IMG/VR virus record: IMGVR_UViG_3300031555_001743
Source of the DNA: a virus
DNA: 47,977 nucleotides
Reading direction: 5' to 3' (one strand)
How positions within the stretch are numbered: the first letter of the stretch is position 1; every line of letters starts with the position of its first letter. The position numbers and the translations under genes are program-made. Below, piece by piece: positions 3,318-40,608 of this stretch. The notes under the pieces were generated by a model. The model was not told the DNA's origin. It saw only the letters and a program-made list of their open reading frames with translations, and searched no databases.

Positions 3318-3594
3318 CCCACTTCTCCTGCTTGATACGCTGCAGCTGACGTTTCAGCTTTTTGTTCATGATCTTGTCAATCTCATCCTCACCGAGAAGA
3401 TATCTAAGCTGTGAAGCAACCACAAGTATATCTGCCACTTCTTCCTTGATATTCTTGTATGCTTCGGACTTGCCCCTTCTCAGCTTATTCAATGCCACCA
3501 TGTACTCAGCCGCTTCTTCAATCAGCATATCAGCCTGACTTGAAAAGCCGTAGTAATCAGCTATTTTCTTTATACGTTCATCCATCTGTTTCAC
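3280..3594 (-). CDS. MazG-like nucleotide pyrophosphohydrolase
   Basis: About 100 aa and all-helical, with paired acidic motifs LIEEAAEYMVA and EEVADILVVASQL typical of MazG/NTP-PPase. Confidence 0.6.
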   Translation of the reverse strand: MKQMDERIKKIADYYGFSSQADMLIEEAAEYMVALNKLRRGKSEAYKNIKEEVADILVVASQLRYLLGEDEIDKIMNKKLKRQLQRIKQEKWDEKSRQIYLAEE

Positions 3595-3932
3595 CGCCTT
3601 ATTTTATATCGCTTGCAGTATTCGTCAAGCGTTTCCATCTTGACGTTGATTCTGTCAAAGTCAAGGTCATACTTCTTAGCGTATTCTGCCATCATTTCAT
3701 TTGAACACATCTGCTGTCCGAATATCTCAGGCATTTCCAGAACCATGAGAACATCATTGAACCACTGCTGTATATACCGCTTTGTGTATCTGCGCTTTTC
3801 ACATACTGCTATCATAGCGGTTATAGCCTGTTTCATCATGTCGTTCATCACAGCTTCATACAGCTGATACTGGAATAGTGCGTTCTGTAATTCCTGCTCT
3901 TTTCGGAAGTCTTTAAGTCCTCGGCTTTTCAT
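3591..3932 (-). CDS. hypothetical protein (113 aa)
   Basis: ORF in series on the coding strand; stop/start overlaps with neighbours. Confidence 0.6.
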   Translation of the reverse strand: MKSRGLKDFRKEQELQNALFQYQLYEAVMNDMMKQAITAMIAVCEKRRYTKRYIQQWFNDVLMVLEMPEIFGQQMCSNEMMAEYAKKYDLDFDRINVKMETLDEYCKRYKIRR

Positions 3933-4293
3933 ACAGCTTACTCCTCATATACTTGTCAAATTCCGATGCATCCGCAGTAATCATGTATACGTCATTGCCT
4001 GTCTCGTCAACATGAGATAAAGACATGGTAACGCCTTTTGACGTTGTTCTTGCTATGCCTTTTGTGTACCTGATAAGTGTCTGGTTGTCTTTATCCTCTT
4101 TCATGGTTGTTGTTCCGATAACTGCGTATTCGCTTATCAGTTCCTTTACCTTGTCGATACTCGTTGTGACTGTATATCCCGATGCTCTGAATTCAACTGT
4201 CTGCTTTGTGGTATCAACTTCAATCGTTGCGACTGTCGGATTCATGCCCTGCCTGTCCGTCACAAATCCCCTTGTTCTGAATATCTTGCTCAT
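3913..4293 (-). CDS. hypothetical protein (126 aa)
   Basis: ORF in series on the coding strand. Confidence 0.6.
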   Translation of the reverse strand: MSKIFRTRGFVTDRQGMNPTVATIEVDTTKQTVEFRASGYTVTTSIDKVKELISEYAVIGTTTMKEDKDNQTLIRYTKGIARTTSKGVTMSLSHVDETGNDVYMITADASEFDKYMRSKLYEKPRT

Positions 4294-4295
4294 GA

Positions 4296-4388
4296 TTACT
4301 TCTCCTCAAACTTCCTGTCTGAATTTGTGAACGCTATCGCCGTGCAGATAACTCCGCAGACGAAGCCTATCAGTGTATATCCTAACAT
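4296..4388 (-). CDS. micro membrane protein (30 aa)
   Basis: Hand translation: MLGYTLIGFVCGVICTAIAFTNSDRKFEEK. AAGGAG SD 7 nt upstream; stop lies 2 nt before the next ATG. Confidence 0.35.
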   Translation of the reverse strand: MLGYTLIGFVCGVICTAIAFTNSDRKFEEK

Positions 4389-4400
4389 AGTATCACTCCT

Positions 4401-4733
4401 TTAGTATCTCGCCCACAGCTCGACACCGCAGGCCCTTGCTAATTTCTCAGCATTCTTTGTAAACGTGCTGTTTGTCGCAACTGCCGCTCTTGTAGCGTGA
4501 TAGTATCGCTTTGCAGCGTATATCTCCTGTACTGCTTGTACTCCGACTTTGCCCTTATAATTTTTACACTGGACAACGATTCTGCCGAAGGGGAAACACA
4601 TAGCTGATACGTCACATCCATAGTCTGAGGACTGTCCCCGAACCCTTATCATGAAGAATCCGTGAAACCTCATCTTCCATGCAACGTGATGTTCGTATTT
4701 ATCACCCTTGCGTTTTGTATTCTTCTTTCTCAT
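4401..4733 (-). CDS. Mrr-cat (restriction-endonuclease fold) domain protein, 110 aa
   Basis: GDKYEHHVAW ... SSDYGCDVSA ... VVQCKNYKGKVGVQAVQEIYAAK ... ATNSTFTKNA follows the D...(Q/E)xK order of the Mrr N-terminal catalytic domain (recalled, not searched). Confidence 0.55.
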   Translation of the reverse strand: MRKKNTKRKGDKYEHHVAWKMRFHGFFMIRVRGQSSDYGCDVSAMCFPFGRIVVQCKNYKGKVGVQAVQEIYAAKRYYHATRAAVATNSTFTKNAEKLARACGVELWARY

Positions 4734-4918
4734 TTTTCCAGTGCCTTTATGTCATTGATGAGCTTGCGGATAATAGCCGCTTCTTCATCGTATTTCTTCA
4801 ACTTCTGGTTCTCGCTGAGTGTAAGTATCTCTGCTATGTTCATGCCCTTCTTGCTTTCGATTGATACCTCACTGATTCCAAGTGCAAGCGCAACAGCTGC
4901 CGTATTATATACTTTCAT
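4730..4918 (-). CDS. hypothetical protein (62 aa)
   Basis: ORF in series; a possible short HTH (AVALALGISEVSIES). Confidence 0.5.
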   Translation of the reverse strand: MKVYNTAAVALALGISEVSIESKKGMNIAEILTLSENQKLKKYDEEAAIIRKLINDIKALEK

Positions 4919-5240
4919 AATCTATACCTCTTTTCTGATCATCAAGCTTTCTTTCAAGCTCTGCTATGTATTCCTTTTGTATCTGGATATCCCTGCGGTA
5001 AACGTCTAAGAACGACCGCATTTCTTTCATGGATTTCCTGCGATTCTGTTTGAATTTATCCTGCCGATACACTCCGTTCTCCTTTTCTACTCTCGCCGCA
5101 CAGTCAGGACAGTATTTCTGACGTATCAGTTTGTAAAAGGATTCTGAGTATTCATCCCCGAGCCGCTTTCCGCAGATGCAACAATGTGCTGTTAGCACTC
5201 CGTCAACACGGCTCAATGCAGGATTCTTGTATCTTGCCAT
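4905..5240 (-). CDS. zinc-ribbon protein (111 aa)
   Basis: CCICGKRL ... CPDCAARV. Start set at ATG 5240 (MARYKNPAL) behind an AAGGGGAGTG SD. Confidence 0.6.
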   Translation of the reverse strand: MARYKNPALSRVDGVLTAHCCICGKRLGDEYSESFYKLIRQKYCPDCAARVEKENGVYRQDKFKQNRRKSMKEMRSFLDVYRRDIQIQKEYIAELERKLDDQKRGIDYESI

Positions 5241-6827: not shown

Positions 6828-8217
6828 TCCTTAACCATATCGGCAAACGCATTTCTTCAACTGCTATATATTTTTCTGATATCCTTATCGTTCCTTTGAT
6901 TTCGCTTGACAGGATATCTTTTGTGTACTTCACAAGTTCTGCAGTCATATGTTGTGCTTCTGCTTGTTTTCTTTCGATGTTCTGCTTTACCGATATCTCA
7001 GCTTCTGATGTTATGATATACACATCAACAGGCTTTTTCTGTCCGAATCTCCAACATCTTCTGACTGCCTGATAATAACTTTCAAAGCTATCAGATAAAC
7101 CGCAGAATATAACCGTGTTACAGTTCTGCCAGTTCATGCCCCATCCTGCTATCTTCGGCTTACTTATAAGCCTTTTTACTTCTCCCTGTGAGAAATTGAT
7201 CATTGATGTTTTTTTGTGATCGTCACTGTCAGCACCTTTTACTTCAACGCTATCGGGGATTATTTCTGATAATAACGCTGATTCATCATTGAAGTCACAC
7301 CATATCAGTGACTGTCCGTCAGCCTGTTCTGCGATTTCCTTTGATTTCTCAGCACGTCTTTCAAGGCTTTCTTTCCTTGCTTCTCTGCGTTCTGATAAAC
7401 TCTCTGCAACTTCTGCATAGAACATCATCTGTCCATCCTCATTCTCTGTGTTACCACTCTCGACCTGTATCTCATGAATGTTCAGCGGTGGAAGCTGATA
7501 ATCCTTGCCATCATATCCTAAATCGGCAGGAGAAGTCATGCAGCAAGCCCATGATGCTATCCATTCAAAGAACTTATCCTTTGCGTGTCCTTTAAGTCTC
7601 CATTTCGATGTATTTTTGCCATCGTGAACAAAGTATGTAGCAAGCATTTCTGTCTGTGTCATAATGCCTAAGAACTCAGCATGATTTCCGATTTCCATAA
7701 AGTCATTTGGTGCAGGTGTTGCTGTACAGCATAACTTATACGGTGTATCTTTGAATTTTTCCGTTAAGGCAATTCGTGTAGCACCTGTTGAATTCTTCAA
7801 AATCGAACTTTCATCAAGAATTATGCCGCTGAATGTACTCTCGTCAAAATGATCTATCATCTCATAGTTTGTGATATTGATTCCTTGCTTGACATCATCC
7901 TGAGTACGGCAGATATTTACATCAATTCCAAACTTCACGCCCTCGGCTTTTGTCTGCGCTGCCACTGCAAGCGGTGCTAAAATCAGCACATTTTCACCAG
8001 TATGCTTGTAAACTTCTTCTGCAAATGATAACTGCTGTAAAGTCTTACCGAGTCCACAGTCCTCAAATAAGCAGGCTTTTCCCTTTTTCAAAGCCCAATG
8101 AACAATATCTCTCTGCCAGTCAAAGAGATTTTTGTTGTACTGTGATTTATCACTTTCAAATCCGCTTGACTTTATCTGTGTCAGCTTCGATTTGATGAAC
8201 TCTTTGTAATCGTTCAT
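6793..8217 (-). CDS. SNF2-family helicase
   Basis: DCGLGKTLQ (motif I), ILDESSILKN (motif II), CCTATPAPND (motif III), RCWRFGQKKPVDVY (motif VI). Confidence 0.8.
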   Translation of the reverse strand: MNDYKEFIKSKLTQIKSSGFESDKSQYNKNLFDWQRDIVHWALKKGKACLFEDCGLGKTLQQLSFAEEVYKHTGENVLILAPLAVAAQTKAEGVKFGIDVNICRTQDDVKQGINITNYEMIDHFDESTFSGIILDESSILKNSTGATRIALTEKFKDTPYKLCCTATPAPNDFMEIGNHAEFLGIMTQTEMLATYFVHDGKNTSKWRLKGHAKDKFFEWIASWACCMTSPADLGYDGKDYQLPPLNIHEIQVESGNTENEDGQMMFYAEVAESLSERREARKESLERRAEKSKEIAEQADGQSLIWCDFNDESALLSEIIPDSVEVKGADSDDHKKTSMINFSQGEVKRLISKPKIAGWGMNWQNCNTVIFCGLSDSFESYYQAVRRCWRFGQKKPVDVYIITSEAEISVKQNIERKQAEAQHMTAELVKYTKDILSSEIKGTIRISEKYIAVEEMRLPIWLRSESDESKKSVC

Positions 8218-16823: not shown

Positions 16824-17213
16824 TTACTTATATTGTATAAAGTCCTCACCGTACAACTTGTTCAGCTCGTCAAATACGTGCCCCATGCCAAGGCCTCTGC
16901 TGTCCGGCTTCCATATTCCGTCACTGTCATACGCTCCGCCGTTTATACAAAAGTCGTACTGTTTCGGATGTGTGCGTTTTAGTCTTTGAAACCTTGTTTC
17001 TCCTTTTTCAAGATGTGCTCCAAAGCCACAGAAGATACATCCGGTTCTGTCACAACCTGTAGTACAAAGATAATGTATACTTAAGTCGCAGCCTTCAAGA
17101 GGCATCTGCCCCCCATAAAAAGATATTTTGCCATACACGGAAGCCATCGGTATGTTTTTCTCCTTTATGTACTGTAAAACATCATGTTCAGTCCAGAAAC
17201 TTATCCGTTCCAT
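16824..17213 (-). CDS. PAPS-reductase/DndC-like protein, C-terminal Cys-rich part (split gene)
   Basis: ISFWTEHDVLQYI ... CTTGCDRTGCIFCGFG ... THPKQYDFC. The ATG lies within the last 13 nt of the PP-loop ORF, in another frame. Confidence 0.55.
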   Translation of the reverse strand: MERISFWTEHDVLQYIKEKNIPMASVYGKISFYGGQMPLEGCDLSIHYLCTTGCDRTGCIFCGFGAHLEKGETRFQRLKRTHPKQYDFCINGGAYDSDGIWKPDSRGLGMGHVFDELNKLYGEDFIQYK

Positions 17214-17653
17214 TCAACATCACCATTAAGCTTTGCAATACACCTCTTGCTTCCTCGTTTGGCCTGCTGAATTGTGTAGGATATCTCCTTACTTATGACA
17301 GGATATCCATACTCACATATAACTTGAGTAAATGTCTTTTCCGGGTAAAGAATCCGCACGTTGTCGAAAGTCTTGACAAATCTCTGTATTTCAGGATATT
17401 CAAGCCCTGTATTCACGAATACAGCTTCAACGTCTGGATAAAGCTCTCGCACCAAATGAAGGAGAACTGTACTGTCTTTGCCGCCACTGAATGATACATA
17501 CACACCGTCAACTCCATAATGTGTCACCCACTCTCTTATGCGCTGCTGTGTTTTTAGTATTTTAACTTCGAGCGGCAATGATTGTAACATTTTTAATTCT
17601 TCAGGCGTTCGCACTTTTTCGTCTGTTGACATAATTTTCTCCTTTCCGCTCAT
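17201..17653 (-). CDS. PAPS-reductase-like PP-loop ATP pyrophosphatase, N-terminal part (split gene)
   Basis: VSFSGGKDSTVLLHL is the SGGxDS PP-loop. The ORF ends after about 150 aa, where family members usually continue. Confidence 0.6.
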   Translation of the reverse strand: MSGKEKIMSTDEKVRTPEELKMLQSLPLEVKILKTQQRIREWVTHYGVDGVYVSFSGGKDSTVLLHLVRELYPDVEAVFVNTGLEYPEIQRFVKTFDNVRILYPEKTFTQVICEYGYPVISKEISYTIQQAKRGSKRCIAKLNGDVEWNG

Positions 17654-19294: not shown

Positions 19295-19369
19295 TGTTCA
19301 AGTATCGCTACCTGAACCGCTACAAGTTCATTGTAGCATACTTGACAAGCAATGTCAAGGAGTGATAAT

Positions 19370-20413
19370 ATGGCAGAAGCTAAAAAGTTACCATCAGGAA
19401 GTTGGAGAATCCGCATTTACGATAACGAACTGAAAAAACAAATCAGTTTTATGTCTGATCTGCCCGGAAAGGCAGGAAAGGCAGAAGCTGAGTTAATGGC
19501 TCGTGAGTATCAGCTCGGGCGAAAAAAGAAAAAGGAGCAGGGGAAAACAATAGGAGAGTGCATTGATGAATATATCGCATTGAAAGAGAATATTCTAAGT
19601 CCGACAACTATAAGCGGTTATCGAAAATACAGAAAAACAAGTCTCTCGGGCTTGTGTGATATCTTAATAAAAAATCTGACACAACAAGAAGTGCAAGCGT
19701 ATATAAACCGTCTTGCACTCACTATGTCCCCAAAATCCATACGTAATGCACACGGCCTGCTGTCTGCTGTAGTCAAGGTTTATGCTCCTGAGTTATATCT
19801 TAATACCACGCTGCCGAAAGTGCAGAAGAAGATCAAACAGCTACCCGAAGTGATAGATGTATGGAAAGCAATTCACGGCACGGAGATAGAATTGCCTTGT
19901 CTATTGGCTATGTGGTGTAGCCTGCGAATGTCCGAAGTCCGAGGATTGAAGAAGTCAGATATAAAAAACGGCATTATCACCGTTGAAAGAACCATAGTCA
20001 ATGCGGATAATGAGCATATCGAGAAGGACAGCACGAAAACAATTGAATCAACAAGGCAAATTGAACTTCCTGAGTACATTATATCGCTCATAGATGCCCT
20101 TCCAGAAGAACAGGAGTATATTACCCTTTTCAAAGATCATGCGCTTTATATGTGCTTTACAAGGCTATTAGAACGCAAGGGGATAAAACACATGAGTTTC
20201 CACGACCTCAGACACATGAACGCTTCTATCATGCTGATGCTCGGTATTCCTGACAAGTATGCAATGGAGCGAGGGGGATGGAGCACAAACAGCACCTTGA
20301 AAAGCGTATATCAGCATACTTTTTCGGCTGAAAGAAAAGCCGCAGACAAGAAGATCAACGACTATTTTAACAGTCTTTTAGACACGATTTTAGACACAAA
20401 CACCGATATTTAG
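19370..20413 (+). CDS. int: tyrosine recombinase / phage integrase
   Basis: Arm-binding-type N-terminus (LPSGSWRIRIY), LRMSEVRGL (Arg box), HDLRHMNAS (HxxR), GGWSTNSTLKSVYQH (catalytic Tyr). Start set at ATG 19370 behind an AAGGAGTG SD. Confidence 0.85.
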   Translation: MAEAKKLPSGSWRIRIYDNELKKQISFMSDLPGKAGKAEAELMAREYQLGRKKKKEQGKTIGECIDEYIALKENILSPTTISGYRKYRKTSLSGLCDILIKNLTQQEVQAYINRLALTMSPKSIRNAHGLLSAVVKVYAPELYLNTTLPKVQKKIKQLPEVIDVWKAIHGTEIELPCLLAMWCSLRMSEVRGLKKSDIKNGIITVERTIVNADNEHIEKDSTKTIESTRQIELPEYIISLIDALPEEQEYITLFKDHALYMCFTRLLERKGIKHMSFHDLRHMNASIMLMLGIPDKYAMERGGWSTNSTLKSVYQHTFSAERKAADKKINDYFNSLLDTILDTNTDI

Positions 20414-20503: not shown

Positions 20504-20608
20504 ATATTATTAGCATCGAGAAGTCTAATATATTAGACTACGTGTCTAATAAAACACGCCTATAATATATCATTTTAGACACAAATTAGACACGAAATTA
20601 GACACGAA

Positions 20609-20638
20609 ATCCCCTGCCAATCAGACAGGGGATTTTTT
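20609..20638 (+). terminator. rho-independent terminator (plus-strand polarity)
   Basis: ATCCCCTG-N9-CAGGGGAT followed by TTTTTT; abuts the stop of the last minus-strand cargo gene. Confidence 0.6.
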
Positions 20639-20967
20639 CATATTTCGTTCAACTTACGTATCACACCATTGTATAGCCGGGGCTGTATCGCTGATAGAAC
20701 AGATATCAATTCATCCATCACTGACAGAACATCCTTGATTGGTTTATCCTGCACTAACTGCCCAAATTCAGTCTCCGAGTAGTAGTCAACTGTTTCTTTG
20801 ATCGGCTCGGGAGCAGGCGCAGAAGAATATCCGCTTGTGTCAGGTTTGCCCTGTTTCTCACGGAGCAAAATGTAGTAAGCTGACAGTTTCATGCAAGTGT
20901 TAGCATTCGGGTTTCGTTCACCCTCGCATTCGGCTATTGCCGCTTTAAGATCGTCTATTGTAATCAT
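20638..20967 (-). CDS. cargo protein of unknown function (109 aa)
   Basis: MITIDDLKAAIAECEGERNPNANTCMKLSAYYILL...; last gene before attP. Confidence 0.65.
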   Translation of the reverse strand: MITIDDLKAAIAECEGERNPNANTCMKLSAYYILLREKQGKPDTSGYSSAPAPEPIKETVDYYSETEFGQLVQDKPIKDVLSVMDELISVLSAIQPRLYNGVIRKLNEI

Positions 20968-20983
20968 AGCGGCTTCACCGTCC

Positions 20984-21355
20984 TTACATTTCGTTCAGGA
21001 TTCTTTCAAGCTTCTTGCGCTTGTGTTCATCGGGCGCAGAATCAATAGCATCTTCCAGACGTTCCTTGAATTCGCTCTCGGCTCTGCTGTAGCCATCCTC
21101 ACGGCTGTAACGTCCCATGCTGTCACGGCGAGCGTTAGAACCTCTGCCACGTGCATTAGACATTCTGTGCATTGGCTCATCCCAATCACCCGAATATCCT
21201 TCTTCTTCCATTGCCTTGTTAGTGAGGATTGCAGTTTTAAACTTAGCCATATTCTTTCCGTCCTCAATATCGGCTCTGCTAAGCTTGCCGCCCATTGCGA
21301 CCTTATTCTCGAGTTCGTCAAGTTCCTTGTCGATGTATTTACAGATCTTATCCAT
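20984..21355 (-). CDS. cargo protein of unknown function (123 aa), Arg/Ser/Gly/Tyr-rich centre
   Basis: Helical ends flank ARGRGSNARRDSMGRYSREDGYSR. Confidence 0.65.
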   Translation of the reverse strand: MDKICKYIDKELDELENKVAMGGKLSRADIEDGKNMAKFKTAILTNKAMEEEGYSGDWDEPMHRMSNARGRGSNARRDSMGRYSREDGYSRAESEFKERLEDAIDSAPDEHKRKKLERILNEM

Positions 21356-21370
21356 ACTGTTTCACTCCTT

Positions 21371-21853
21371 TCATCTCAGCCTGTTCACGCCTGCATAATC
21401 GAACACGATTGAAGCGTTATTGATCGTTATATTCTGTGTACTTGCGTTGACAAGAGCCACGCTGTCACATCCGCAGAGGGATATAACAGGTACTATGATG
21501 CTTGTTCCAACATTGCCTGCAACCTCAACAGCCGCAGGAGTGAAAGACATAAGGCTTTCAGGAGCGATAACACCATCAACCGCAAGCGCAAGCTGTATTT
21601 CCTCAACTGTGCCGCCTGTCGGAATTTCGATGTTTGCGTGAACCTCAACCTCATAATTAGTCTCATAGATACGCCTGCAACCGCAGCCACAAGAGCAACG
21701 GTCCTGTGTAGGTGCGTTGCTTGCAAGCAAGAATACACCGCCTGATTTCTTAAAAACAAGTCCGTCATTGCAAGGACAAGGGCTGTTCAAGAATACGGCA
21801 GGCTGATTCGGTGCAAGATTCTGCGGTGTAACTATGCTGTAATTAGCTGACAT
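21371..21853 (-). CDS. Cys-rich protein, possible BclA-C-terminal/TNF-like beta-sandwich (160 aa)
   Basis: CPCNDG, CSCGCGC and CGCD clusters within an alternating beta-strand-like sequence. The fold call is a pattern impression only. Confidence 0.3.
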   Translation of the reverse strand: MSANYSIVTPQNLAPNQPAVFLNSPCPCNDGLVFKKSGGVFLLASNAPTQDRCSCGCGCRRIYETNYEVEVHANIEIPTGGTVEEIQLALAVDGVIAPESLMSFTPAAVEVAGNVGTSIIVPVISLCGCDSVALVNASTQNITINNASIVFDYAGVNRLR

Positions 21854-21867
21854 AGAATCACCGCCGA

Positions 21868-22779
21868 TCAGAAGTTATTACCGCATCCGCAGCTGTTATT
21901 GTTCGGGCAAGTAAAGATTGGCTGATTGCCATATACAGGCTGAGCCGGGATAGGACAACTGCGAAGCTCTGCCACAAGCTGATTTGCTGTTGTTGCCTGT
22001 GCAGCTCTGATTTCGGCAGTCTGAGCCACCTGCGAAGCCTGACCACGTGCATACATAAGTTCACTTCTGAGGTTAGCATTCTCTCTGCGTTCTGCATCAA
22101 GTCTATCCTGACAAAGATCATCCTTGATTGACTGAATGCCTGCTGTAAGAGCGGTAATGATGCTCTGTGTGTTCTGTGCAGCTTCGTAACGATCAGCACA
22201 GTTCTCCGTTGCTATGGTGTACTTGATATCGGCTGCCTGTGTTGCCTGATTGTAGCCATTCTGAGCAAGCTGTGCCTGAACATTGGTGAATCCCTGTGTA
22301 TTTGCTGTCTGCTCTGCGAACGATCTGTTCAGGCTTGCAAGTTCGTTAGCGTTCAGCTGCTGTCCGATTGCTACCTGTGCGCCGAAGATGCTGTTCTGAA
22401 TGCCATTTGCAGAATTAGCAAGATCATAACGCATATCACCGCAGCACTGACAAAGCTGTGTAGATAAGCCCTGCACACCGTCACGAATAGAGGTTACATT
22501 GCTGTTAAGCATCTGATCTCTGAAACCGTCATTGATGTTCTGCGAGTTGTTGAGCCACGGATAGAGACCGAAGCCCATGTCCATGCCGAGCATTCCTGCT
22601 CCCATCATGCCACCCATGCCATAGCCGCCCATGCCGCCCCATCCGAGCAACAGAAGCAGTAAAATCCATGCACCATCGCCACCGAAGAAACCGTTGCCGA
22701 AGCCGCCACCACCGTAATTCATGCCACCTGATGGCTGTACAAGCATTGTTGTACTCATGTTTTCATCTGTAAGAGCCAT
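21868..22779 (-). CDS. Gly-rich membrane-anchored Q/N/A-rich coiled-coil protein with Cys-rich tail (303 aa)
   Basis: N-terminus GGGGFGNGFFGGDGAWILLLLLLGWGGMGGYGMGG, a long Q/N/A-rich centre with spaced Cys, and a C-terminal SCGCGNNF. GAAAGGAG SD. Confidence 0.65.
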   Translation of the reverse strand: MALTDENMSTTMLVQPSGGMNYGGGGFGNGFFGGDGAWILLLLLLGWGGMGGYGMGGMMGAGMLGMDMGFGLYPWLNNSQNINDGFRDQMLNSNVTSIRDGVQGLSTQLCQCCGDMRYDLANSANGIQNSIFGAQVAIGQQLNANELASLNRSFAEQTANTQGFTNVQAQLAQNGYNQATQAADIKYTIATENCADRYEAAQNTQSIITALTAGIQSIKDDLCQDRLDAERRENANLRSELMYARGQASQVAQTAEIRAAQATTANQLVAELRSCPIPAQPVYGNQPIFTCPNNNSCGCGNNF

Positions 22780-22873
22780 ATTAAACTCCTTTCTCCCGAG
22801 AATTATTCGGGTAAGCGTTCACATCCTAAAGTGTGAACGGTAAAATTTATATCAAGGCTGTTGCCTTAATAGC

Positions 22874-22902
22874 TTGACAAATCCCCTGATCTATGCTATA
22901 CT
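22874..22902 (+). promoter_or_regulatory. orphan near-consensus sigma-A promoter (TTGACA-17-TGcTATACT)
   Basis: Perfect -35, 17-nt spacer and extended -10, on the strand opposite to all flanking genes. Confidence 0.6.
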
Positions 22903-22908
22903 TTCAGA

Positions 22909-22966
22909 TAAGATAAGAAAAGTTTTATATAAAGAGCGGCAGTCCTTCGGGGCTGTCGTTCTTTTT
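22909..22966 (+). ncRNA. candidate ~58-nt sRNA (promoter-to-terminator unit)
   Basis: Predicted TSS about 7 nt after the -10. A/U-rich 5' part, then a 9-bp stem CGGCAGTCC-UUCG-GGGCUGUCG and UUCUUUUU. There is no ORF. Confidence 0.45.
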
Positions 22967-22969
22967 GTG

Positions 22970-23173
22970 TCATTTGCTAAATGTAGAACAAAGAAGCTGC
23001 GCCATTTTCTCGTTACGTTCCTCAGCTTCATCTTCCCACTTTTTAGCTGCTTCATCTGCCTTTATTCTGCCGAGTTCGGCGGCAAGTGTCTGATAGTCTT
23101 TATAGCTAAGCTGTGTTTTGTTAAGTATAGAGTTGATGTGTGCTGTAAGCTTCTTTTCTATTTTTTCTTTCAT
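22970..23173 (-). CDS. K/E-rich coiled-coil protein (67 aa)
   Basis: Start set at ATG 23173 (MKEKIEKKL) behind an AAAGGGA SD. The track ORF extends into the repeat-rich non-coding region. Confidence 0.55.
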   Translation of the reverse strand: MKEKIEKKLTAHINSILNKTQLSYKDYQTLAAELGRIKADEAAKKWEDEAEERNEKMAQLLCSTFSK

Positions 23174-23222
23174 TTTTAATTTCCCTTTCAAAATTTTAAT
23201 TACTTTCGCAAAATTCAAGTTA

Positions 23223-23319
23223 TTTTGCGTTAACTTTCGTATTTCGCAAGTAGAGAAACGCAAAAACATTGCACATTTGCGTTTTATGAGCAATCTATAC
23301 GCATTTTATTGCACATTTG
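23223..23319. promoter_or_regulatory. repeat-dense control region inside the cargo cassette
   Basis: ATTGCACATTTG at 23268 and 23308. Inverted repeat TTTTGCGTT (23223) / AACGCAAAA (23257). Six TTGCG/CGCAA cores within 150 bp. Confidence 0.4.
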
Positions 23320-23321
23320 AG

Positions 23322-23555
23322 TTATCTTCTGAACATCCTCTGCATCATCTGCTGAGCCATAGTCAAGCGGCTCTGAGGTATACGGCCTGACTGTATAAGA
23401 TGCTGTATAATGCCCTGTGGGTTATTCTCCATGCCATCAGGGATAGATACACCTTGCTGTCTCAGAAGGTTCAAAGCCTGCTCCTTCGGGTTCTGTGGCT
23501 GTTGTGCAGGCTGTTGTTTGCTTAATCGCTGAAACATATCACTCATTGATATCAT
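23322..23555 (-). CDS. Gln-rich small protein (77 aa)
   Basis: QQPAQQPQNPKEQALNLLRQQG ... MAQQMMQRMFRR. Confidence 0.6.
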   Translation of the reverse strand: MISMSDMFQRLSKQQPAQQPQNPKEQALNLLRQQGVSIPDGMENNPQGIIQHLIQSGRIPQSRLTMAQQMMQRMFRR

Positions 23556-23940
23556 CCTCTCTCTTGATTATCGGCTGTATATTCAACTGCGAAAGTCTTT
23601 GTTCAAGCTTATCCCACGTTACAAATTCATCGTAATTTACTTTCTTTTCCTTTGCTTCTGGTGGCTCTTTAACAAATACATCAAGGTTCATTTGGTTATT
23701 TGCATAAACAGTTTTTATAAATATTTTGTCTTCTGTCTTATTTATCATCATCTGTGTGCCGCCAGTTTGAACAGGAAAGCTTTCCGCTTCGGCACGATCT
23801 CCGCTGATTTGAACAATTTCAGCGTGTATTGTCGGCTGAGAAAAATTTTGTGTTTGCGCCGAATTTTGATAATTCAGCATAGTCTGCTGATACTGCGGCA
23901 TATTGTATGTGTTATAGTTCGGTATATATCCATATGGCAT
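23539..23940 (-). CDS. protein with Y/N/Q-rich low-complexity N-terminus (133 aa)
   Basis: MPYGYIPNYNTYNMPQYQQTMLNYQNSAQTQNF followed by a small beta-rich domain. Confidence 0.6.
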   Translation of the reverse strand: MPYGYIPNYNTYNMPQYQQTMLNYQNSAQTQNFSQPTIHAEIVQISGDRAEAESFPVQTGGTQMMINKTEDKIFIKTVYANNQMNLDVFVKEPPEAKEKKVNYDEFVTWDKLEQRLSQLNIQPIIKREDDINE

Positions 23941-23944
23941 AATA

Positions 23945-24307
23945 TCACTCCCTCACAAAGTAGTATGATACGATCTCATCCGATGAATCCCAATTGTCCA
24001 GAAGTACGCCATCACGCACAACTGCAACGTGCGAGTCTGTCGCAACGATATACAAGCCGTCAGGATGCGTTGTAGTGAATTCTTCAAAGGTCATAGTATC
24101 AAGTATAGGGTATTTTTTAAAGCCCTTAGACTGCAAATATGCGCCCCATACGCTGTTCGATGAAGGCAAGTCGCATTGACATAAACCTTCTATGCATAAA
24201 TCTATATATGTTCGTTCCCATTGCTGATTAAGCGCAAGAGACAAAGCACGGACAACACAGTCACCGAGCCGCTTCTTGCAAGGATTGACATTCACAAATT
24301 CGTACAT
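23945..24307 (-). CDS. putative papain-fold cysteine peptidase-like protein (120 aa)
   Basis: GDCVVRAL (Cys) ... SHVAVVRDGVLLDNWD (His, Asp) occur in the order expected for a Cys-His-Asp triad. Confidence 0.35.
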   Translation of the reverse strand: MYEFVNVNPCKKRLGDCVVRALSLALNQQWERTYIDLCIEGLCQCDLPSSNSVWGAYLQSKGFKKYPILDTMTFEEFTTTHPDGLYIVATDSHVAVVRDGVLLDNWDSSDEIVSYYFVRE

Positions 24308-24337
24308 TTAAATCACCATCTTTATGATAAAACAAAA

Positions 24338-24369
24338 AAGGCTCTCTAACAATAGCGTTAGAAAGCCTT
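24338..24369 (-). terminator. bidirectional rho-independent terminator ending the late operon
   Basis: AAGGCTCTCTAAC-N6-GTTAGAAAGCCTT (one mismatch), flanked by an A-run and a T-run. The minus-strand reading is followed by TTTTTTGTTTT. Confidence 0.65.
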
Positions 24370-24394
24370 TTTCTTGTCATTATATAGCCATTTT

Positions 24395-24622
24395 TCAGCC
24401 TATAGCCTGCCATTCAGAACAGAGCTGATACAGCATAGCCGTGTATTTGTTTGTAATGCGGTATATCTGTTTCACCGACAGTTCAAATTCTTCGGCTATT
24501 CTCTCATGGGTTATCCCATCAAGAAGCCGCCGTTTCATGATTTTTCGATCACGCTCATTTTTTATCCATTCATCTATCAGTATTGATAAATCCGTATTAG
24601 AAATATTGTTGAATCTGTACAT
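24395..24622 (-). CDS. sigma-70 region-4-like HTH protein (75 aa)
   Basis: ERDRKIMKRRLLDGITHERIAEEFELSVKQIYRI resembles region 4.2 of ECF/sigma-like phage regulators. Confidence 0.5.
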   Translation of the reverse strand: MYRFNNISNTDLSILIDEWIKNERDRKIMKRRLLDGITHERIAEEFELSVKQIYRITNKYTAMLYQLCSEWQAIG

Positions 24623-24650: not shown

Positions 24651-25373
24651 TTATATCTTTTCCAGTGTTACTTTGTAAATTGTACCGTCTGACAGCTTTA
24701 ATTCTCCTGTCAGTCCGTCAAGTTCTTCGGGCTGTGTGGGAGCAGGCTGTTTTTCATAGCCGTTCAGCCCTGCGGATTTAATCAGTGCAGGATAATCAAC
24801 ATAACATTCATCAAGGTCAACATTTCCGTTTATGCCTGATACCTTACCTGTTGCCGAATACTGCCACATACCATAATCACCGCTGTATGACGGTTTAGAT
24901 ACGCCGTAATGAGCTACCCATATAGCATATCTCTGCTGTACTTCTGCGCTAACATAAGACTTAAGAGGAGAAGCTGACATATATATGCCCGTCCAGTATC
25001 CTGCTTTTTCCAGTTCATCGCAGAAAGCTTTGATAATGCGTGATACTTTTTCTTTTCCGAGAGAAAACTGTGAATTTTCCTCAACGTCGAAGTAAATAGG
25101 ATATTCAAACTGCTTACCCTTGATAACTTCAAGACACACTTTTGCTTCCTGCCTTGCAACATCTTCGGTTGTTGCATATGAATACCAATATACGCCACAA
25201 GGCATACCACAAGCCTTACAACCCTTATAATTGTTGTCAAACTGCTTGTCCTTCTGAGATATCGCTCTGCCGTATCCTGCTCTCAGTATAGCATACTGTA
25301 TACCGTCAGCCTTTACCTTCTGCCAGTTGATAACGCCCTGATGTTCAGATACGTCAATTCCTTTAATTGTCAT
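24651..25373 (-). CDS. endolysin, GH25 muramidase with C-terminal binding domain
   Basis: IKGIDVSEHQGVINWQKVKADGIQYAILRAGYG is the GH25 signature. Confidence 0.85.
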   Translation of the reverse strand: MTIKGIDVSEHQGVINWQKVKADGIQYAILRAGYGRAISQKDKQFDNNYKGCKACGMPCGVYWYSYATTEDVARQEAKVCLEVIKGKQFEYPIYFDVEENSQFSLGKEKVSRIIKAFCDELEKAGYWTGIYMSASPLKSYVSAEVQQRYAIWVAHYGVSKPSYSGDYGMWQYSATGKVSGINGNVDLDECYVDYPALIKSAGLNGYEKQPAPTQPEELDGLTGELKLSDGTIYKVTLEKI

Positions 25374-25408: not shown

Positions 25409-26428
25409 TTATGGTTTTAATGATGTTTTAGGGAAGATTTTCTTGTTGATGGGGAGGTAATATTGGGTTGAACCTGAACTGTAATAAATATTCTCACCGT
25501 CAGTCCATACATCGTTACCCCAAAAATTAGTTAGTCCATTCCACGTTTTATCATTCCATGTTGAAGTTGATTTATCAAGGATATAATGACTTGTACCATT
25601 ACTATAATAAATGTTATCTCCGTCAGTCCAGATTTTCCCCCCTGTAAAATTTATTGTTCCAGATATCCCAGTCCACGCCTTATTATTCCATGTAGAAGTG
25701 GATTTATCAAGAACGTATTGATTGGCATTATTACTAAAATAAATATTATCTCCATCAGTCCAGATATAATTTGAAGAAAAGTTCGTCAGTCCATGCCATG
25801 TTTTAGCAGACCAAGTTGATGTTGATTTGTCAAGGACACATTGATTTCCACTAAAACTATAATAAATATTCTCACCGTCAGTCCATACATCGTTACCCCA
25901 AAAATTAGTTAGTCCATTCCACGTTTTATCATTCCATGTTGAAGTTGATTTGTCGAGTACCTTTGATTCATTATAATTTAGTTCGTTAAGATATATGTTT
26001 TCGCCATCCGACCAAACATATCTGCCATCAAAACGATTAATGCCGTTCCATTTCTTTATAAACCACGTTGAAGTGGATTTATCCAGAACATAATGTGAAG
26101 TATTATTGCTGTAATAAATGTTTTCACCATCAGTCCAAATGTTATCATTGTGTAAATCTATATTTCCGTTCCAAGTTTTAGCAAACCATTCATTTCCAAT
26201 TTCTTCAACAGCATTTAACCTATACGTAGAAATAGTTGGATAAAAACCGCCAGTTTTAACTGGAAGCTGAGCTATAACTCTCTTATATCCATCGGCGTTA
26301 TCATCTGAAGCATTATAAGTTCCGTTTTCAGTAATGGTCTTATTTTTCAGCACTGGTTCAGGTGCAGGTTCACCGCCACCATCAGAACCGCACATCTTTG
26401 AAGCTTTGAGTAATTCGTATAACTCCAT
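25409..26428 (-). CDS. six-repeat (beta-propeller-like) putative receptor-binding protein
   Basis: Six units of about 42 aa: W-x-x-K-x-W-x-G ... W-T-D-G-(E/D)-N-I-Y-Y-S ... VLDKSTST. N-terminus ITENGTYNASDDNADGY is like tail-fibre shafts. Confidence 0.55.
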   Translation of the reverse strand: MELYELLKASKMCGSDGGGEPAPEPVLKNKTITENGTYNASDDNADGYKRVIAQLPVKTGGFYPTISTYRLNAVEEIGNEWFAKTWNGNIDLHNDNIWTDGENIYYSNNTSHYVLDKSTSTWFIKKWNGINRFDGRYVWSDGENIYLNELNYNESKVLDKSTSTWNDKTWNGLTNFWGNDVWTDGENIYYSFSGNQCVLDKSTSTWSAKTWHGLTNFSSNYIWTDGDNIYFSNNANQYVLDKSTSTWNNKAWTGISGTINFTGGKIWTDGDNIYYSNGTSHYILDKSTSTWNDKTWNGLTNFWGNDVWTDGENIYYSSGSTQYYLPINKKIFPKTSLKP

Positions 26429-27333: not shown

Positions 27334-27525
27334 TCACTCCCTCTTATTCTTCTCATGCTGTGTTCCGAAGTAAAACCCGATAATCATAGTATAAATAGTC
27401 ATAAAGATTTGCGGCTCTATCTTCTCACACACTGAAAGATATACAAAAGCGGCTGTTAAAGCGAATGTAACGATTGTTTTCACATCAATTAACTTAGCTA
27501 TGCGTTCTCGTATTTTCACGTTCAC
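27334..27525 (-). CDS. holin (class II, two TM helices)
   Basis: 63 aa with TM1 IVTFALTAAFVYLSV, TM2 IFMTIYTMIIGFYFG and a charged tail TQHEKNKRE. Confidence 0.6.
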   Translation of the reverse strand: MNVKIRERIAKLIDVKTIVTFALTAAFVYLSVCEKIEPQIFMTIYTMIIGFYFGTQHEKNKRE

Positions 27526-27763
27526 ATACCTCCAATCGCCTTGTGACGTCTTTTATCTGCTCTTCTACTACAGGCATTCTTCGGGCAAAGTTGTTGTGCT
27601 CCCTGACTTCTGAGGTTAGGGAATCAAGCTTTGTCTCAAATACAGCCTGCTGTGTTTCAAGTTTGTGCTGTATCTCCCTGTTGCTAACTTTGGTATTGAT
27701 TATCACAGTTACTATAGTCACTAACCCAGTTATGATTGATACAATTACACTGCTATCCATCAT
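27494..27763 (-). CDS. XhlA/BhlA-like membrane coiled-coil lysis-associated protein
   Basis: N-terminal TM VIVSIITGLVTIVTVII, then a coiled coil. Start set at ATG 27763 behind a GAGGGTGAG SD. Confidence 0.45.
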   Translation of the reverse strand: MMDSSVIVSIITGLVTIVTVIINTKVSNREIQHKLETQQAVFETKLDSLTSEVREHNNFARRMPVVEEQIKDVTRRLEVCERENTRTHS

Positions 27764-28178
27764 TCTCACCCTCGCTTTCTTCTGGTTCTTCATCTTCGTA
27801 ATACTCGACTATTGTTCCCGGTGGAAATGACGTTGCATAGTAATGGCAATCAGAAGCAATAGTCACATGATTTATGCTTGTGTTGTAAAAGGCATATCTG
27901 CCTATAGACTTGACTGTGCTCGGTATCGACACGTTTATAAGTGTAGGCTGATTTGCAAACGCTCCAAGATATATCGGATCTGGCATTGACTTTGTTTGCA
28001 GGCCGTTATCCCCGATAACCCATGCTTTATTCTGCACAGGTGGATTCTTATGAAAGCCCGTAGCAGGACCGTTCTCCGTCATGCGCCATAGAGCAGGGGC
28101 AAGGGGATAAGAGGGAAATGATATCGCTTCTGGCTGTTCTGGTGTACATAATACGTCATTGTCAATTATCCATGCCAT
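27753..28178 (-). CDS. small BspA-type LRR-like tail protein with acidic tail (141 aa)
   Basis: VSIPSTVKSIGRYAFYNTSINHVTI resembles an LRR_5 repeat. Ends YYEDEEPEESEGENDG. Confidence 0.4.
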   Translation of the reverse strand: MAWIIDNDVLCTPEQPEAISFPSYPLAPALWRMTENGPATGFHKNPPVQNKAWVIGDNGLQTKSMPDPIYLGAFANQPTLINVSIPSTVKSIGRYAFYNTSINHVTIASDCHYYATSFPPGTIVEYYEDEEPEESEGENDG

Positions 28179-40050: not shown

Positions 40051-40608
40051 TCAGTGCTTTCCTTGTGAATGCGATAAGTCATCACTCCTTTTGTTATTTG
40101 AATATTTCCATATATAACCGCCTGCTGTATAACTCCATTCTTTCAGAACGTTATTAATCGCAGTACGACTAATGCCTGTGATAGCTGATGCGTAAGAAAT
40201 ACTTTTGTATTCAGCTATTAATTCACCATCTACTGAAAATTGCTGAACCGCCTTATTTTTGCTATATTCTATGTTGTATTGCCTATCGCACCATTCAAGA
40301 TTTGACACATTGTTGTTCAATGGGTTTTCATCTTTATGATTTACTTTGGGATAATTATTTGGATTATCCACAAAAGCTTCTGCGACAAGCCTATGAACAG
40401 AATAATGCTTAGACACTCCGTTTTTATTCAAAATAACAAATGCGTACTTTGAACCATCTCTACCACGTTTACCTTGTTTCAACGTTTTTTCTTTTGTTTG
40501 ATATTGCCCTTGTCCGTTTTTAACAATACGTGGAAGTGATATGATTTCGCCCTCATCGCTTATAAGGTACATTTCTTCGTACCCTTTAATTTCTTTCCAG
40601 TTTGCCAC
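40051..40608 (-). CDS. free-standing HNH homing endonuclease (NUMOD4 + HNH_3 + NUMOD1/IENR1-like HTH)
   Basis: WKEIKGYEEMYLISDEGEIIS (NUMOD4), HRLVAEAFVDNP...VNHKDENPLNNNVSNLEW (HNH), SAITGISRTAINNVLK (HTH). GTG start. Confidence 0.75.
   Translation of the reverse strand: MANWKEIKGYEEMYLISDEGEIISLPRIVKNGQGQYQTKEKTLKQGKRGRDGSKYAFVILNKNGVSKHYSVHRLVAEAFVDNPNNYPKVNHKDENPLNNNVSNLEWCDRQYNIEYSKNKAVQQFSVDGELIAEYKSISYASAITGISRTAINNVLKEWSYTAGGYIWKYSNNKRSDDLSHSQGKH

Follow-up and report, generated by a model that had tools for sequence, protein, structure and literature searches.

An optional, ordered gene module with a covarying leader RNA in tailed phages of anaerobic gut and rumen Bacillota

Several described systems come close to parts of the locus reported here. 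Phage morons, such as bor and lom of lambda and those of the HK97 type, are single genes of sporadic occurrence, and viral fibres with a TNF-like knob are represented by the tail-needle knobs of Sf6 and HS1, by PRD1 P5 and by collagen/C1q fibre proteins. In Firmicutes, leaders that stabilise the 5' end of an mRNA include STAB-SD of cryIIIA and 5' stem-loop stabilisers. In the Bacillus cereus group, the exosporium nap is anchored by the ExsF(BxpB/ExsFA)-BclA-ExsY system, which served for our exosporium comparison (PDB 9h3d, 8d02, 7r1m and 1wck; PMC12357932) and in which the exosporium leader, with its LVGPT core, docks into ExsF (PMC12357932).

Here we report the analysis of a gene cassette in the IMG/VR virus record IMGVR_UViG_3300031555_001743, a stretch of 47,977 bp (the window) from a temperate tailed phage. 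It represents a metagenomic contig in full, equal in length to the longest contig on record for its p303 protein. The architecture of the cassette is that of a moron, a known kind, and its content is not of a known kind, consisting of seven uncharacterised families in fixed order together with a helix-turn-helix (HTH) gene and a leader RNA. Our tentatively preferred explanation is a dispensable structural add-on made in productive infection, because the module is co-oriented in late regions and is present in a phage seen as lytic only; the leading form of this explanation is a rod-plus-knob decoration or fibre attached to the virion.

A sequence-only reading of the window had described eight open reading frames (ORFs) on the minus strand as a cassette flanked by terminators next to the phage attachment site (attP). 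All eight were present at the positions it gave, bracketed by two hairpins that were both strong, and residue counts agreed with the Gly-, Cys-, Gln- and Y/N/Q-rich compositions it had noted. The elements, in the order of transcription, are the following.

24395-24622, minus strand: sig75, a sigma-70 region-4-like HTH protein of 75 amino acids (aa), encoded at the end of the endolysin transcription unit upstream.
24334-24373, minus strand: upstream intrinsic terminator in the gap between sig75 and p120, called by the scanner with 18 stem pairs and a T-run.
23945-24307, minus strand: p120, a compact alpha/beta protein of 120 aa (phrog_3754).
23539-23940, minus strand: p133, with a Y/P/Q/N-rich N-terminus, a small conserved beta domain and a C-terminal helical tail.
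23322-23555, minus strand: p77, Gln-rich, with a conserved helical C-terminal half (phrog_22984).
22970-23173, minus strand: p67, K/E-rich, 107 aa long if read from a TTG at 23293.
22777-22869, minus strand: p303 leader, with P1, an extended -10-like box, hairpins P2 and P3, a Shine-Dalgarno (SD) sequence and the ATG.
21868-22779, minus strand: p303, 303 aa, with a Gly-rich head, a helical rod and a Cys-rich tail (phrog_16490).
21371-21853, minus strand: p160, a stand-alone protein modelled as a TNF/C1q-like jelly roll (phrog_20016).
20984-21355, minus strand: p123, with helical N- and C-terminal segments around an RGRGxNARRDSMGRYS core, and an APDE motif in a helix.
20638-20967, minus strand: p109, with a conserved head, MITxxDLxxAIAECxGERNPNANTCIKLAAYY, and a conserved tail, PRLYxGVMRKL.
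20598-20640: closing hairpin on the attP side (hairpin at about 20606-20636), bidirectional, with folding z -4.4 on the plus and -6.8 on the minus strand.

Homologous loci were gathered from IMG/VR (80), from genomes and metagenome-assembled genomes (75), from Butyrivibrio virus Ceridwen and from a Ruminococcus flavefaciens prophage. Counts refer to the resulting 157 loci with p303, their ranges are the outcomes of profile searches of all ORFs and of all-against-all clustering, and many of the misses of single families correspond to contig ends. The p160 family was found in 141-151 loci, p123 in 117-144, p120 in 129-132, p77 in 105-112 and p133 in 97-108. The sig75 family occurred in 68-69 loci, with its gene upstream of p120 in 68, and p109 in 40, where it was always the last gene of the module. 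The full order sig75>p120>p133>p77>p303>p160>p123>p109 was kept in 31 loci and shortened versions of it in most of the other 126, while a second arrangement, p303>p160>p123>p120, marked a divergent subgroup. The families p120, p133, p77, p303, p160, p123 and p109, together with sig75, are therefore a conserved module, as gene content and synteny directly show.

Co-occurrence across phages, named beforehand by the sequence-only reading as the test that could refute it, proved strong in these loci. The number of genes had to be corrected, however: seven families recur in order, and the 67-aa ORF gave tblastn matches in 2 of 81 loci, the nearest relatives only, and was absent from the conserved clusters. 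It is a lineage-specific ORF outside the module. That the cassette is no system at all, just unrelated, fast-evolving hypothetical phage ORFs made neighbours by chance, would agree with the lack of any annotated family and with this one lineage-specific ORF among eight; it is scarcely credible in view of the constant order of seven families in well over 100 loci, in phages with different tails, lysins and integrases, and of a covarying RNA leader tied to p303.

The carriers include Butyrivibrio virus Ceridwen, the R. flavefaciens prophage and a prophage of Anaerovibrio lipolyticus, and the hosts accordingly include Butyrivibrio fibrisolvens, R. flavefaciens and the diderm Negativicute A. lipolyticus. 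To our knowledge, all three species are described as non-spore-formers. Ceridwen has the full module (with QHJ73768, QHJ73769 and QHJ73771 as its homologues of p303, p160 and p123), carries neither integrase nor excisionase, and its growth was observed as lytic only. In R. flavefaciens the module is the last block of the prophage, followed by the host genes pyrH and frr, and in A. lipolyticus DSM 3074 it lies 3' of an amidase gene in a prophage with Baseplate_J and DUF2612 genes. Across the loci, the genes downstream of the module code for tyrosine or serine integrases, SNF2 helicases, an endolysin or a glycosyltransferase.

An endolysin was recognised near the module in 69 loci, upstream of it in 52 and downstream in 15, and belonged to the GH25, CHAP, NlpC/P60-ELLD, Amidase_2 or choline-binding type. 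In one locus with the lysis genes downstream (L006), the order is tail fibres, a 176-aa protein, p120, p133, p77, p303, an HNH-like gene, p160, p123, holin and amidase, with gene junctions that overlap or almost touch. The HNH-like gene is a separate Cys-rich insert of 207 aa (6951-7574 of that locus), taken for a candidate HNH-type endonuclease. Two phages whose integrases are 79-80% identical to that of the window and whose tail proteins are related (L163 and L161) have no module; in the former, the order is tail, holin, an apparent M23-type endolysin, attP and integrase. As the module is absent from these relatives and occurs in varied placements elsewhere, it is optional and horizontally mobile among tailed phages infecting anaerobic gut and rumen Bacillota. 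In every placement it belongs to a late region and has the orientation of the structural genes. The earlier view of a self-contained accessory cassette is borne out by its terminators, its candidate promoters and its absence from the phages with closely related integrases. The idea that the attP slot or lysogeny defines it had to be given up, considering the 15 loci in which it precedes holin or endolysin, the head operons described below and lytic Ceridwen, and the module is tied neither to attP nor to lysogeny.

Some copies are found among head genes. In Dulem virus 35 the module separates a MuF-like minor capsid gene from the major capsid gene, in L139 a MuF-like gene is located upstream of it, and other head genes are near it in L078 and L151 (portal, the 3503-4996 homologue) and in several loci of the divergent subgroup. 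These placements would suit proteins that are packaged inside the capsid close to the MuF-like protein and enter the cell along with the DNA, with p303 as a membrane conduit and p123 as a basic, DNA-associated protein; such roles are compatible with the Gly-rich, hydrophobic head of p303 and with the RGRG/RRDS core found in p123, and a dedicated peptidase could trim targeting peptides. In most loci, however, the module is far from head genes, it has its own terminator, promoter and regulator, a TNF-like trimer would be odd for an internal protein, and no similarity to known ejection proteins was found. We regard internal or ejected proteins as quite improbable.

The proteins of the module were compared with the available libraries. 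Pfam, NCBIfam and PADLOC returned no family match for any of the seven families, nothing meaningful for the module proteins being found in PADLOC, and scans of all alignment members of p120, p303 and p160 against family libraries gave coiled-coil noise at most. For known virion, lysis or defence families, no match to an annotated PHROG, Pfam or PADLOC model was obtained. Signal peptides were not found in the module proteins, nor were canonical transmembrane (TM) helices among the partner proteins of p303. In the libraries and literature searched, no description of the module was found beyond annotations as 'hypothetical protein'.

The most conserved DNA of the locus is the p303 leader, which showed 73-88% identity in more than 25 loci whose p303 proteins are 45-88% identical. 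It reads as a P1 palindrome or hairpin, the extended -10-like TGATATAAAT, P2 with an AGGA loop, GCTTACC, P3, a 10-nt SD of sequence AGAAAGGAG(T), and the ATG. The structured leader proposed from the window, with a folding z of -3.4, was verified by covariation across loci: RNAalifold found compensatory changes in 10 of the 15 pairs of P2 and P3, the paired cells amounted to 91.7% against 35-46% in slid-partner controls, and the covariation was 0.431 against 0.05-0.11 in slid controls, with neither the pairing nor the covariation value reached in any of 500 shuffles. A covariance model returned 52 matches in 1.86 Mb, each abutting a p303 start and none elsewhere, and 16 of the 22 exact matches of the core pattern in IMG/VR precede a p303 gene. 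Rfam gave no match in the leader region at E<=1. These data are strong evidence that the leader is a real covarying RNA structure and a previously undescribed cis-acting element. With its long SD and its 5' hairpins, the leader is suggestive of stable and strong expression of the p303 block, although it could instead be a regulatory element bound by a protein.

The protein downstream of this leader, p303, belongs to a family of at least 8000 clusters at 90% identity and 576 at 50% identity (E<=1e-3). In the alignment its N-terminal peptide is conserved as MALTDxN..MPVxP and is followed by a Gly/aromatic-rich head with a Leu run, rich in GxxxG; by a Q/N/A-rich helical rod of about 200 aa with the conserved Cys motifs QLCxCC, ENCADR and LCxD; and by a tail with the motif CPxP..PVYG..PIFTCPNNNxGCGCG. 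The window protein contains 38 Gly and 9 Cys, and neither Lys nor Arg within residues 1-85. Searches of Pfam, NCBIfam and the PDB with p303 yielded coiled-coil noise only. It had been called a membrane protein, and the hydrophobic Leu run, about 10 residues long, was indeed found; as the best 19-residue Kyte-Doolittle mean is 1.45, below the usual TM cut-off, membrane status is not established and membrane insertion is possible. A type IV pilin-like N-terminus was considered and rejected, p303 having neither Glu5 nor a pilin-type helix. One protein with a p303-like head (P0462, 954 aa) was not used, since its remainder looks unrelated and the gene call is probably chimeric. The window p303 is devoid of the CCCENR cysteine triplet present in most homologues.

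The hydrophobic, GxxxG-rich head of p303 and the position of the module are also the basis for a membrane-associated accessory of the lysis stage or of superinfection exclusion, in which p303, inserted into the cytoplasmic membrane by its Gly-zipper and Leu-run head, would act with its cytoplasmic partners to tune the triggering of holin, the breakdown of the envelope or the entry of DNA. In all 69 loci with an endolysin recognised in the flanks, the module adjoins the lysis cassette, usually within a few hundred bases, and in L006 p123 is directly followed by holin and amidase. Lysis proteins under thiol control are exemplified by spanins and SAR endolysins, which the conserved cysteines of the module recall, and Firmicute lysis cassettes hold extra proteins of unknown role, e.g., XepA and XhlA, which set a precedent. 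On the other hand, the hydrophobic run is short, scores below the usual TM threshold and has no Lys or Arg at its flanks, close relatives with ordinary holin-endolysin pairs do without the module, the copies in head operons are distant from lysis genes, and seven genes with a design for high expression exceed the needs of a lysis regulator. This alternative is, in our judgement, unlikely. As a general explanation the spanin analogy was discarded, most hosts being monoderm and the module dispensable.

The structure of p160 was predicted with AlphaFold2 from 68 sequences, resulting in a pLDDT of 68.6 and a pTM of 0.61; confidence was low in the Cys loops 28-59 and 125-130 and nowhere else. The protein has 8 Cys, located in the Cys-rich loops PCPC, CSCGCGC and CGC. 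A Foldseek search of the PDB gave 23 matches at E<=1e-3, of which the seven best were ExsF 9h3d, BxpB 8d02 and ExsFA 7r1m (E 6e-6 to 1.6e-5, TM-scores 0.55-0.61), followed by the C-terminal domain of BclA (BclA-CTD), F-BclA, the BC2L-C lectin, Ena3A, C1q and the Sf6 and HS1 tail-needle knobs. In the BFVD viral library many phage proteins were matched, some of them labelled 'BclA protein' or collagen/C1q. By sequence, p160 and 46 homologues had no Pfam (including BclA_C) or NCBIfam match, and p160 had no sequence or profile match in the PDB. The model thus identifies p160 as a TNF/C1q jelly roll whose nearest structural neighbours are ExsF, BxpB and BclA, and it is presumed to be a trimer.

By analogy with ExsF and the exosporium leader, this fold suggests a similar docking for p160. 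In some p303 homologues the N-terminal peptide reads MLVGPT, comparable to the LVGPT core of that leader, a lead that the leader model TIGR03720 does not support: when 53 p303 homologues were scanned at E<=10, the 25 NCBIfam families with most matches, out of 52, did not include it, a weak test for a motif of about 25 aa. Scans of the module proteins gave no match to exosporium-leader, collagen, BclA_C or coat-family models, and collagen GXY repeats were found in none of them. The likeness to spore coat or exosporium that the sequence-only reading had proposed therefore stood for the fold of p160 and did not stand as a general spore role, because the hosts include taxa described as non-spore-formers. 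Owing to these hosts and to the lack of leader, collagen or coat signatures, a spore-specific role is unlikely.

The same observations bear on a moron for lysogenic conversion, expressed from its own promoters in the prophage and remodelling the envelope, which in spore-formers would act on coat or exosporium through an ExsF/BclA-like protein, a Cys-rich matrix and a YabG- or Tgl-like enzyme. Its terminator-promoter-genes-terminator architecture is typical, the extended -10-like promoter before p303 may need no activator, presence is optional among relatives, a tyrosine or serine integrase is adjacent in a subset of loci, and in R. flavefaciens the module is the final block before host genes. 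Furthermore, the proteins closest to p160 are those of the exosporium, and a coat-like composition lacking signal peptides is what coat proteins made in the mother cell show. Against it stand Ceridwen, with the module and without integrase or excisionase, seen lytic only; the embedding of the module in late operons before holin and endolysin and in head operons; the hosts described as non-spore-formers and the diderm Negativicute; and the missing TIGR03720, collagen-repeat, BclA_C and coat-family matches. The restriction to temperate phages expected of morons was not observed, given lytic Ceridwen, the SNF2 helicase neighbours and the late and head operons. We consider a conversion moron rather unlikely, and the module probably serves neither as a device of the spore surface nor purely for lysogenic conversion.

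For p120, AlphaFold2 with 85 diverse sequences returned a model of high confidence (pLDDT 96.7, pTM 0.88). Alignments of 60 and 85 sequences showed invariant Asn8, Asp16-Cys17, Arg20, His93 and Asp104, and in the model Cys17 caps the N-terminus of a helix while His93 and Asp104 lie on adjacent strands. The top Foldseek matches were Josephin, PLpro and the C39 domain of ComA, all of them weak. Bacillus Tsamsa-like phages, GBK2 and Lak megaphages also encode homologues, some of those in the Tsamsa-like phages bearing the name 'putative peptidase'. The papain-like character attributed to p120 is thus upheld by the invariant Cys17, His93 and Asp104 and by the confident model, whereas the fold matches remained weak; we predict a papain-like cysteine peptidase or cross-linking enzyme. 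Cleavage of a double-glycine leader by a C39-like p120 was rejected, since the p303 N-terminus, examined by eye, misfits the consensus hydrophobic and acidic positions and the GG position is not conserved. The window p120 does not have the NxCPxCYT insertion carried by about 90% of the family, so that the window lineage has lost two Cys motifs of the module families, this one and CCCENR of p303.

The gene upstream, sig75, had been described as sigma-70 region-4-like. Its product matched Pfam HTH_7 at 24.6 bits, above the cut-off of 23.8, and scored below the cut-offs of Sigma70_r4 (21.3 against 24.1) and TIGR02937 (27 against 42.9, E 3e-6). The HTH part of the description therefore holds, the Sigma70_r4 match falls just short, and sig75 is not recognised as a full sigma-70 factor, having a region-4-like HTH only.

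Among the small proteins, p133 has the beta-domain consensus xVxxExxAxxYPVAPG in the alignment and no Pfam or PDB match; a similarity to the S4 domain (E 1.5) was not significant and was dismissed. Gln accounts for 16 of the 77 aa of p77, p123 has no family match in Pfam or NCBIfam, and the Cys pair of p109 is conserved in AIAECxGERNPNANTC. The GC content rises to 47-48% over p303-p123 compared with about 41% in the window as a whole, which agrees with products rich in Gly, Ala and Cys.

The terminators and their surroundings were then analysed for control elements, adding the following to the list.

24324-24352, minus strand: promoter-like element over the upstream terminator, TTGTTA-17-TATCAT, 9 of 12 consensus positions.
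23174-23321: repeat-dense intergenic region with a 16-nt direct repeat in two copies 40 nt apart, a 20-nt tandem pair and inverted repeats.
22874-22966, plus strand: antisense-oriented promoter and terminator unit between p67 and p303.

The upstream terminator has a folding energy of -23.3 kcal/mol and a z of -6.8. Hairpins of -16 to -28 kcal/mol were found in nearly all distinct sig75-p120 gaps examined, including that of Ceridwen; their sequences are mutually unrelated, the feature itself being kept across divergent phages. These gaps often measure only 47-72 nt and the terminator often leaves fewer than 30 nt before p120. In the window, the candidate promoter would give a leader of about 10 nt before p120, and in several relatives a TTGTNA lies in the hairpin loop with a -10-like box, TATACT or TATCAT, after the T-run. 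The arrangement may be either an overlapping terminator and promoter or an antitermination site, and an overlapping promoter seems at least as likely as Q-type antitermination. The closing hairpin has a clean T-run on the plus strand only and a loop of 9 nt, owing to which the scanner missed it.

The repeats of the proposed control region at 23174-23321 were all recovered, with the 12-mer CAAATGTGCAAT confined to it within the window; its DNA is partially conserved with L002, L004 and L005 only, and it may be an operator or promoter region. The antisense unit was also confirmed, consisting of a promoter at 22874-22902 (TTGACA-17-TATACT with a TG extension, 11 of 12 positions) and a hairpin of -25.6 kcal/mol (z -5.9). 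It putatively encodes a small RNA of about 55-60 nt, is conserved in its DNA only in the closest relative (L002) and has no Rfam match.

Taking these data together, for the assembly, stoichiometry, timing and role of the module we infer the following scheme for a structural add-on. The strong terminator would insulate the module from the late and lysis operon, and sig75, encoded just upstream, would be its likely regulator. Block 1 would comprise p120-p133-p77 and block 2 p303-p160-p123-p109, the start of the latter, with its extended -10-like promoter, two-hairpin leader and 10-nt SD, being suited to stable and high expression. Because signal peptides are absent from all products, these would be made in the cytoplasm, where they would form an abundant structural complex whose cysteines allow cross-linking. 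In this complex p303 would be the rod-like scaffold, with its hydrophobic Gly/aromatic head, helical rod and Cys-rich tail; p160 a trimeric cap or anchor of TNF/C1q type, of the ExsF/BclA kind; p123, p109, p133 and p77 low-complexity adaptors; and p120 a dedicated maturation peptidase or cross-linker with a Cys-His-Asp triad.

Several points weigh against a structural add-on of the virion. The module proteins are known from sequences and predicted models, and a p303-p160 interaction is suggested by adjacency and shared CxC motifs alone. Searches of the PDB by sequence found no relative for any of the seven families, and the PHROG matches are all of 'unknown function', the sole structural label being a scaffolding match at E 0.89. 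The p160 model is of moderate confidence (pLDDT 68.6), and TNF-like folds are functionally promiscuous, being used by lectins, cytokines and spore proteins; the best Foldseek match of p120, Josephin-2, reached E 0.04, with a probability of 0.91 and a TM-score of 0.53, and none was found at E<=1e-3. Virion genes do not usually come with a strong terminator, a promoter of their own and a dedicated regulator, features that fit an independently expressed moron, and Q/N/Y/G-rich low-complexity proteins are likewise atypical of virions.

A bolder possibility, which we judge improbable, is that the module encodes an unrecognised phage structure, namely a very late, hyper-expressed coat or matrix, cross-linkable through cysteines, that encases or decorates virions or remodels the dying cell. 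It would be assembled in the cytoplasm from a keratin- or silk-like rod, an ExsF/BclA-type TNF trimer, a low-complexity cement and a dedicated peptidase or cross-linker, under the control of a sigma-region-4-like factor and the new structured leader RNA. If true, it would constitute an exosporium- or occlusion-like layer by which phages of strict anaerobes survive oxygen and the transit between hosts. The probability left by all these explanations falls to functions beyond those considered here. The dispensable add-on of productive infection, with a rod-plus-knob decoration in the lead, is the one we retain.

The remaining features of the window place the module in its genome. On the minus strand, from 47 to 28 kb, the packaging, head and tail genes come first, and on the plus strand past the closing hairpin are the attP-like region with three copies of TTAGACACGAAA, the tyrosine integrase gene and a cI-like HTH gene.

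27334-27525 and 27494-27793, minus strand: holin-like small membrane proteins, followed by two non-lysis genes.
24651-25373, minus strand: GH25 endolysin, directly before the sig75 gene.
20575-20610: attP-side repeat TTAGACACGAAA in 3.1 copies, adjoining the closing hairpin.
19352-20413, plus strand: tyrosine integrase, beyond the attP-like region.

Further TAGACAC copies lie near 20390-20400, and together with the TTAGACACGAAA copies they are probably arm-type integrase binding sites of attP. No tRNA genes were found in the window, no Rfam family matched anywhere in it at gathering thresholds, and DNA nearly identical to it was not found among GenBank phages. The holin candidates (27334-27793) are about 2 kb from the endolysin gene, and between them is encoded a 339-aa protein (25409-26428) made of 3.8 copies of a 123-nt repeat with the motif DKSTSTWxxKxWNG...TDGxNIYYS, possibly a receptor-binding protein of beta-propeller type. 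The first gene of the early region (17201-17653) has a PAPS-reductase/PP-loop domain (E 6e-11) and could be of DNA-modification or anti-defence function. A head-region ORF of 185 aa (40051-40608) has a homologue annotated as 'endonuclease' in Dulem virus 33 (L167, 6389-6940); homologues of this ORF, in one orientation or the other, have inserted within the module or next to it in at least a dozen loci (L005, L016, L025, L060, L107 and others) and look like homing endonuclease genes. In Clostridium phage XP41-N3 (L166, 5072-6876), a shorter p303-like gene (211 aa, a weak match) with small flanking ORFs lies between an antirepressor gene and Gam/Erf recombination genes, and may represent a smaller form of the module located in an early region.

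Seven uncharacterised families that co-travel in a large share of the phages of rumen and gut Clostridia, Bacilli and Negativicutes are explained by no existing annotation. As the module is optional and yet strictly ordered, it must confer a real advantage in infection or carriage. The fold of p160 is the one that anchors the exosporium nap and provides an entry point, through the docking of the p303 peptide and the destination of the complex, and Butyrivibrio fibrisolvens DSM 3071 with its phage Ceridwen is a cultured pair carrying the module. Products associated with virions would form a class of decoration new to gut phages, and products acting on the cell would amount to a novel kind of envelope remodelling directed by phages.

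In comparison with known systems, the leader resembles stabilisers of the STAB-SD type in the hairpins at the start of the untranslated region, the SD-like AGGA in the P2 loop and a very long true SD, and is distinct from them in sequence and structure, without an Rfam match. Clan CA peptidases, i.e., the Josephin deubiquitinases and C39 leader peptidases such as ComA, share with p120 the placement of Cys, His and Asp and an upstream Asn, all invariant; p120 differs in having 120 aa only and no significant match in structure or sequence, and transglutaminases use the same Cys-His-Asp triad. Like the module, the ExsF-BclA system has Cys-rich and low-complexity partners made without signal peptides. 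However, p160 has no sequence-level similarity to ExsF or BclA, and the module is phage-borne, also by a lytic phage, in hosts not known to sporulate.

Viral fibres with a TNF-like knob correspond to the predicted combination of a helical rod with a TNF/C1q-like trimer, and to the late-region position and dispensability of the module; the Sf6 and HS1 knobs and C1q-type phage proteins are themselves among the Foldseek matches. In the module, by contrast, the predicted rod is a polypeptide distinct from the knob and carries a CGCGC tail and a head that is Gly-rich and hydrophobic, and the genes are insulated from the structural operon. With phage morons the module shares the autonomous unit between terminators with candidate promoter elements, the position within or at the end of late operons, the presence or absence among relatives and a GC content unlike that of the flanks. 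It departs from them in occurring also in virulent phages, in having a dedicated regulator and a conserved RNA leader, and in consisting of seven or eight genes that keep a strict order across hundreds of lineages.

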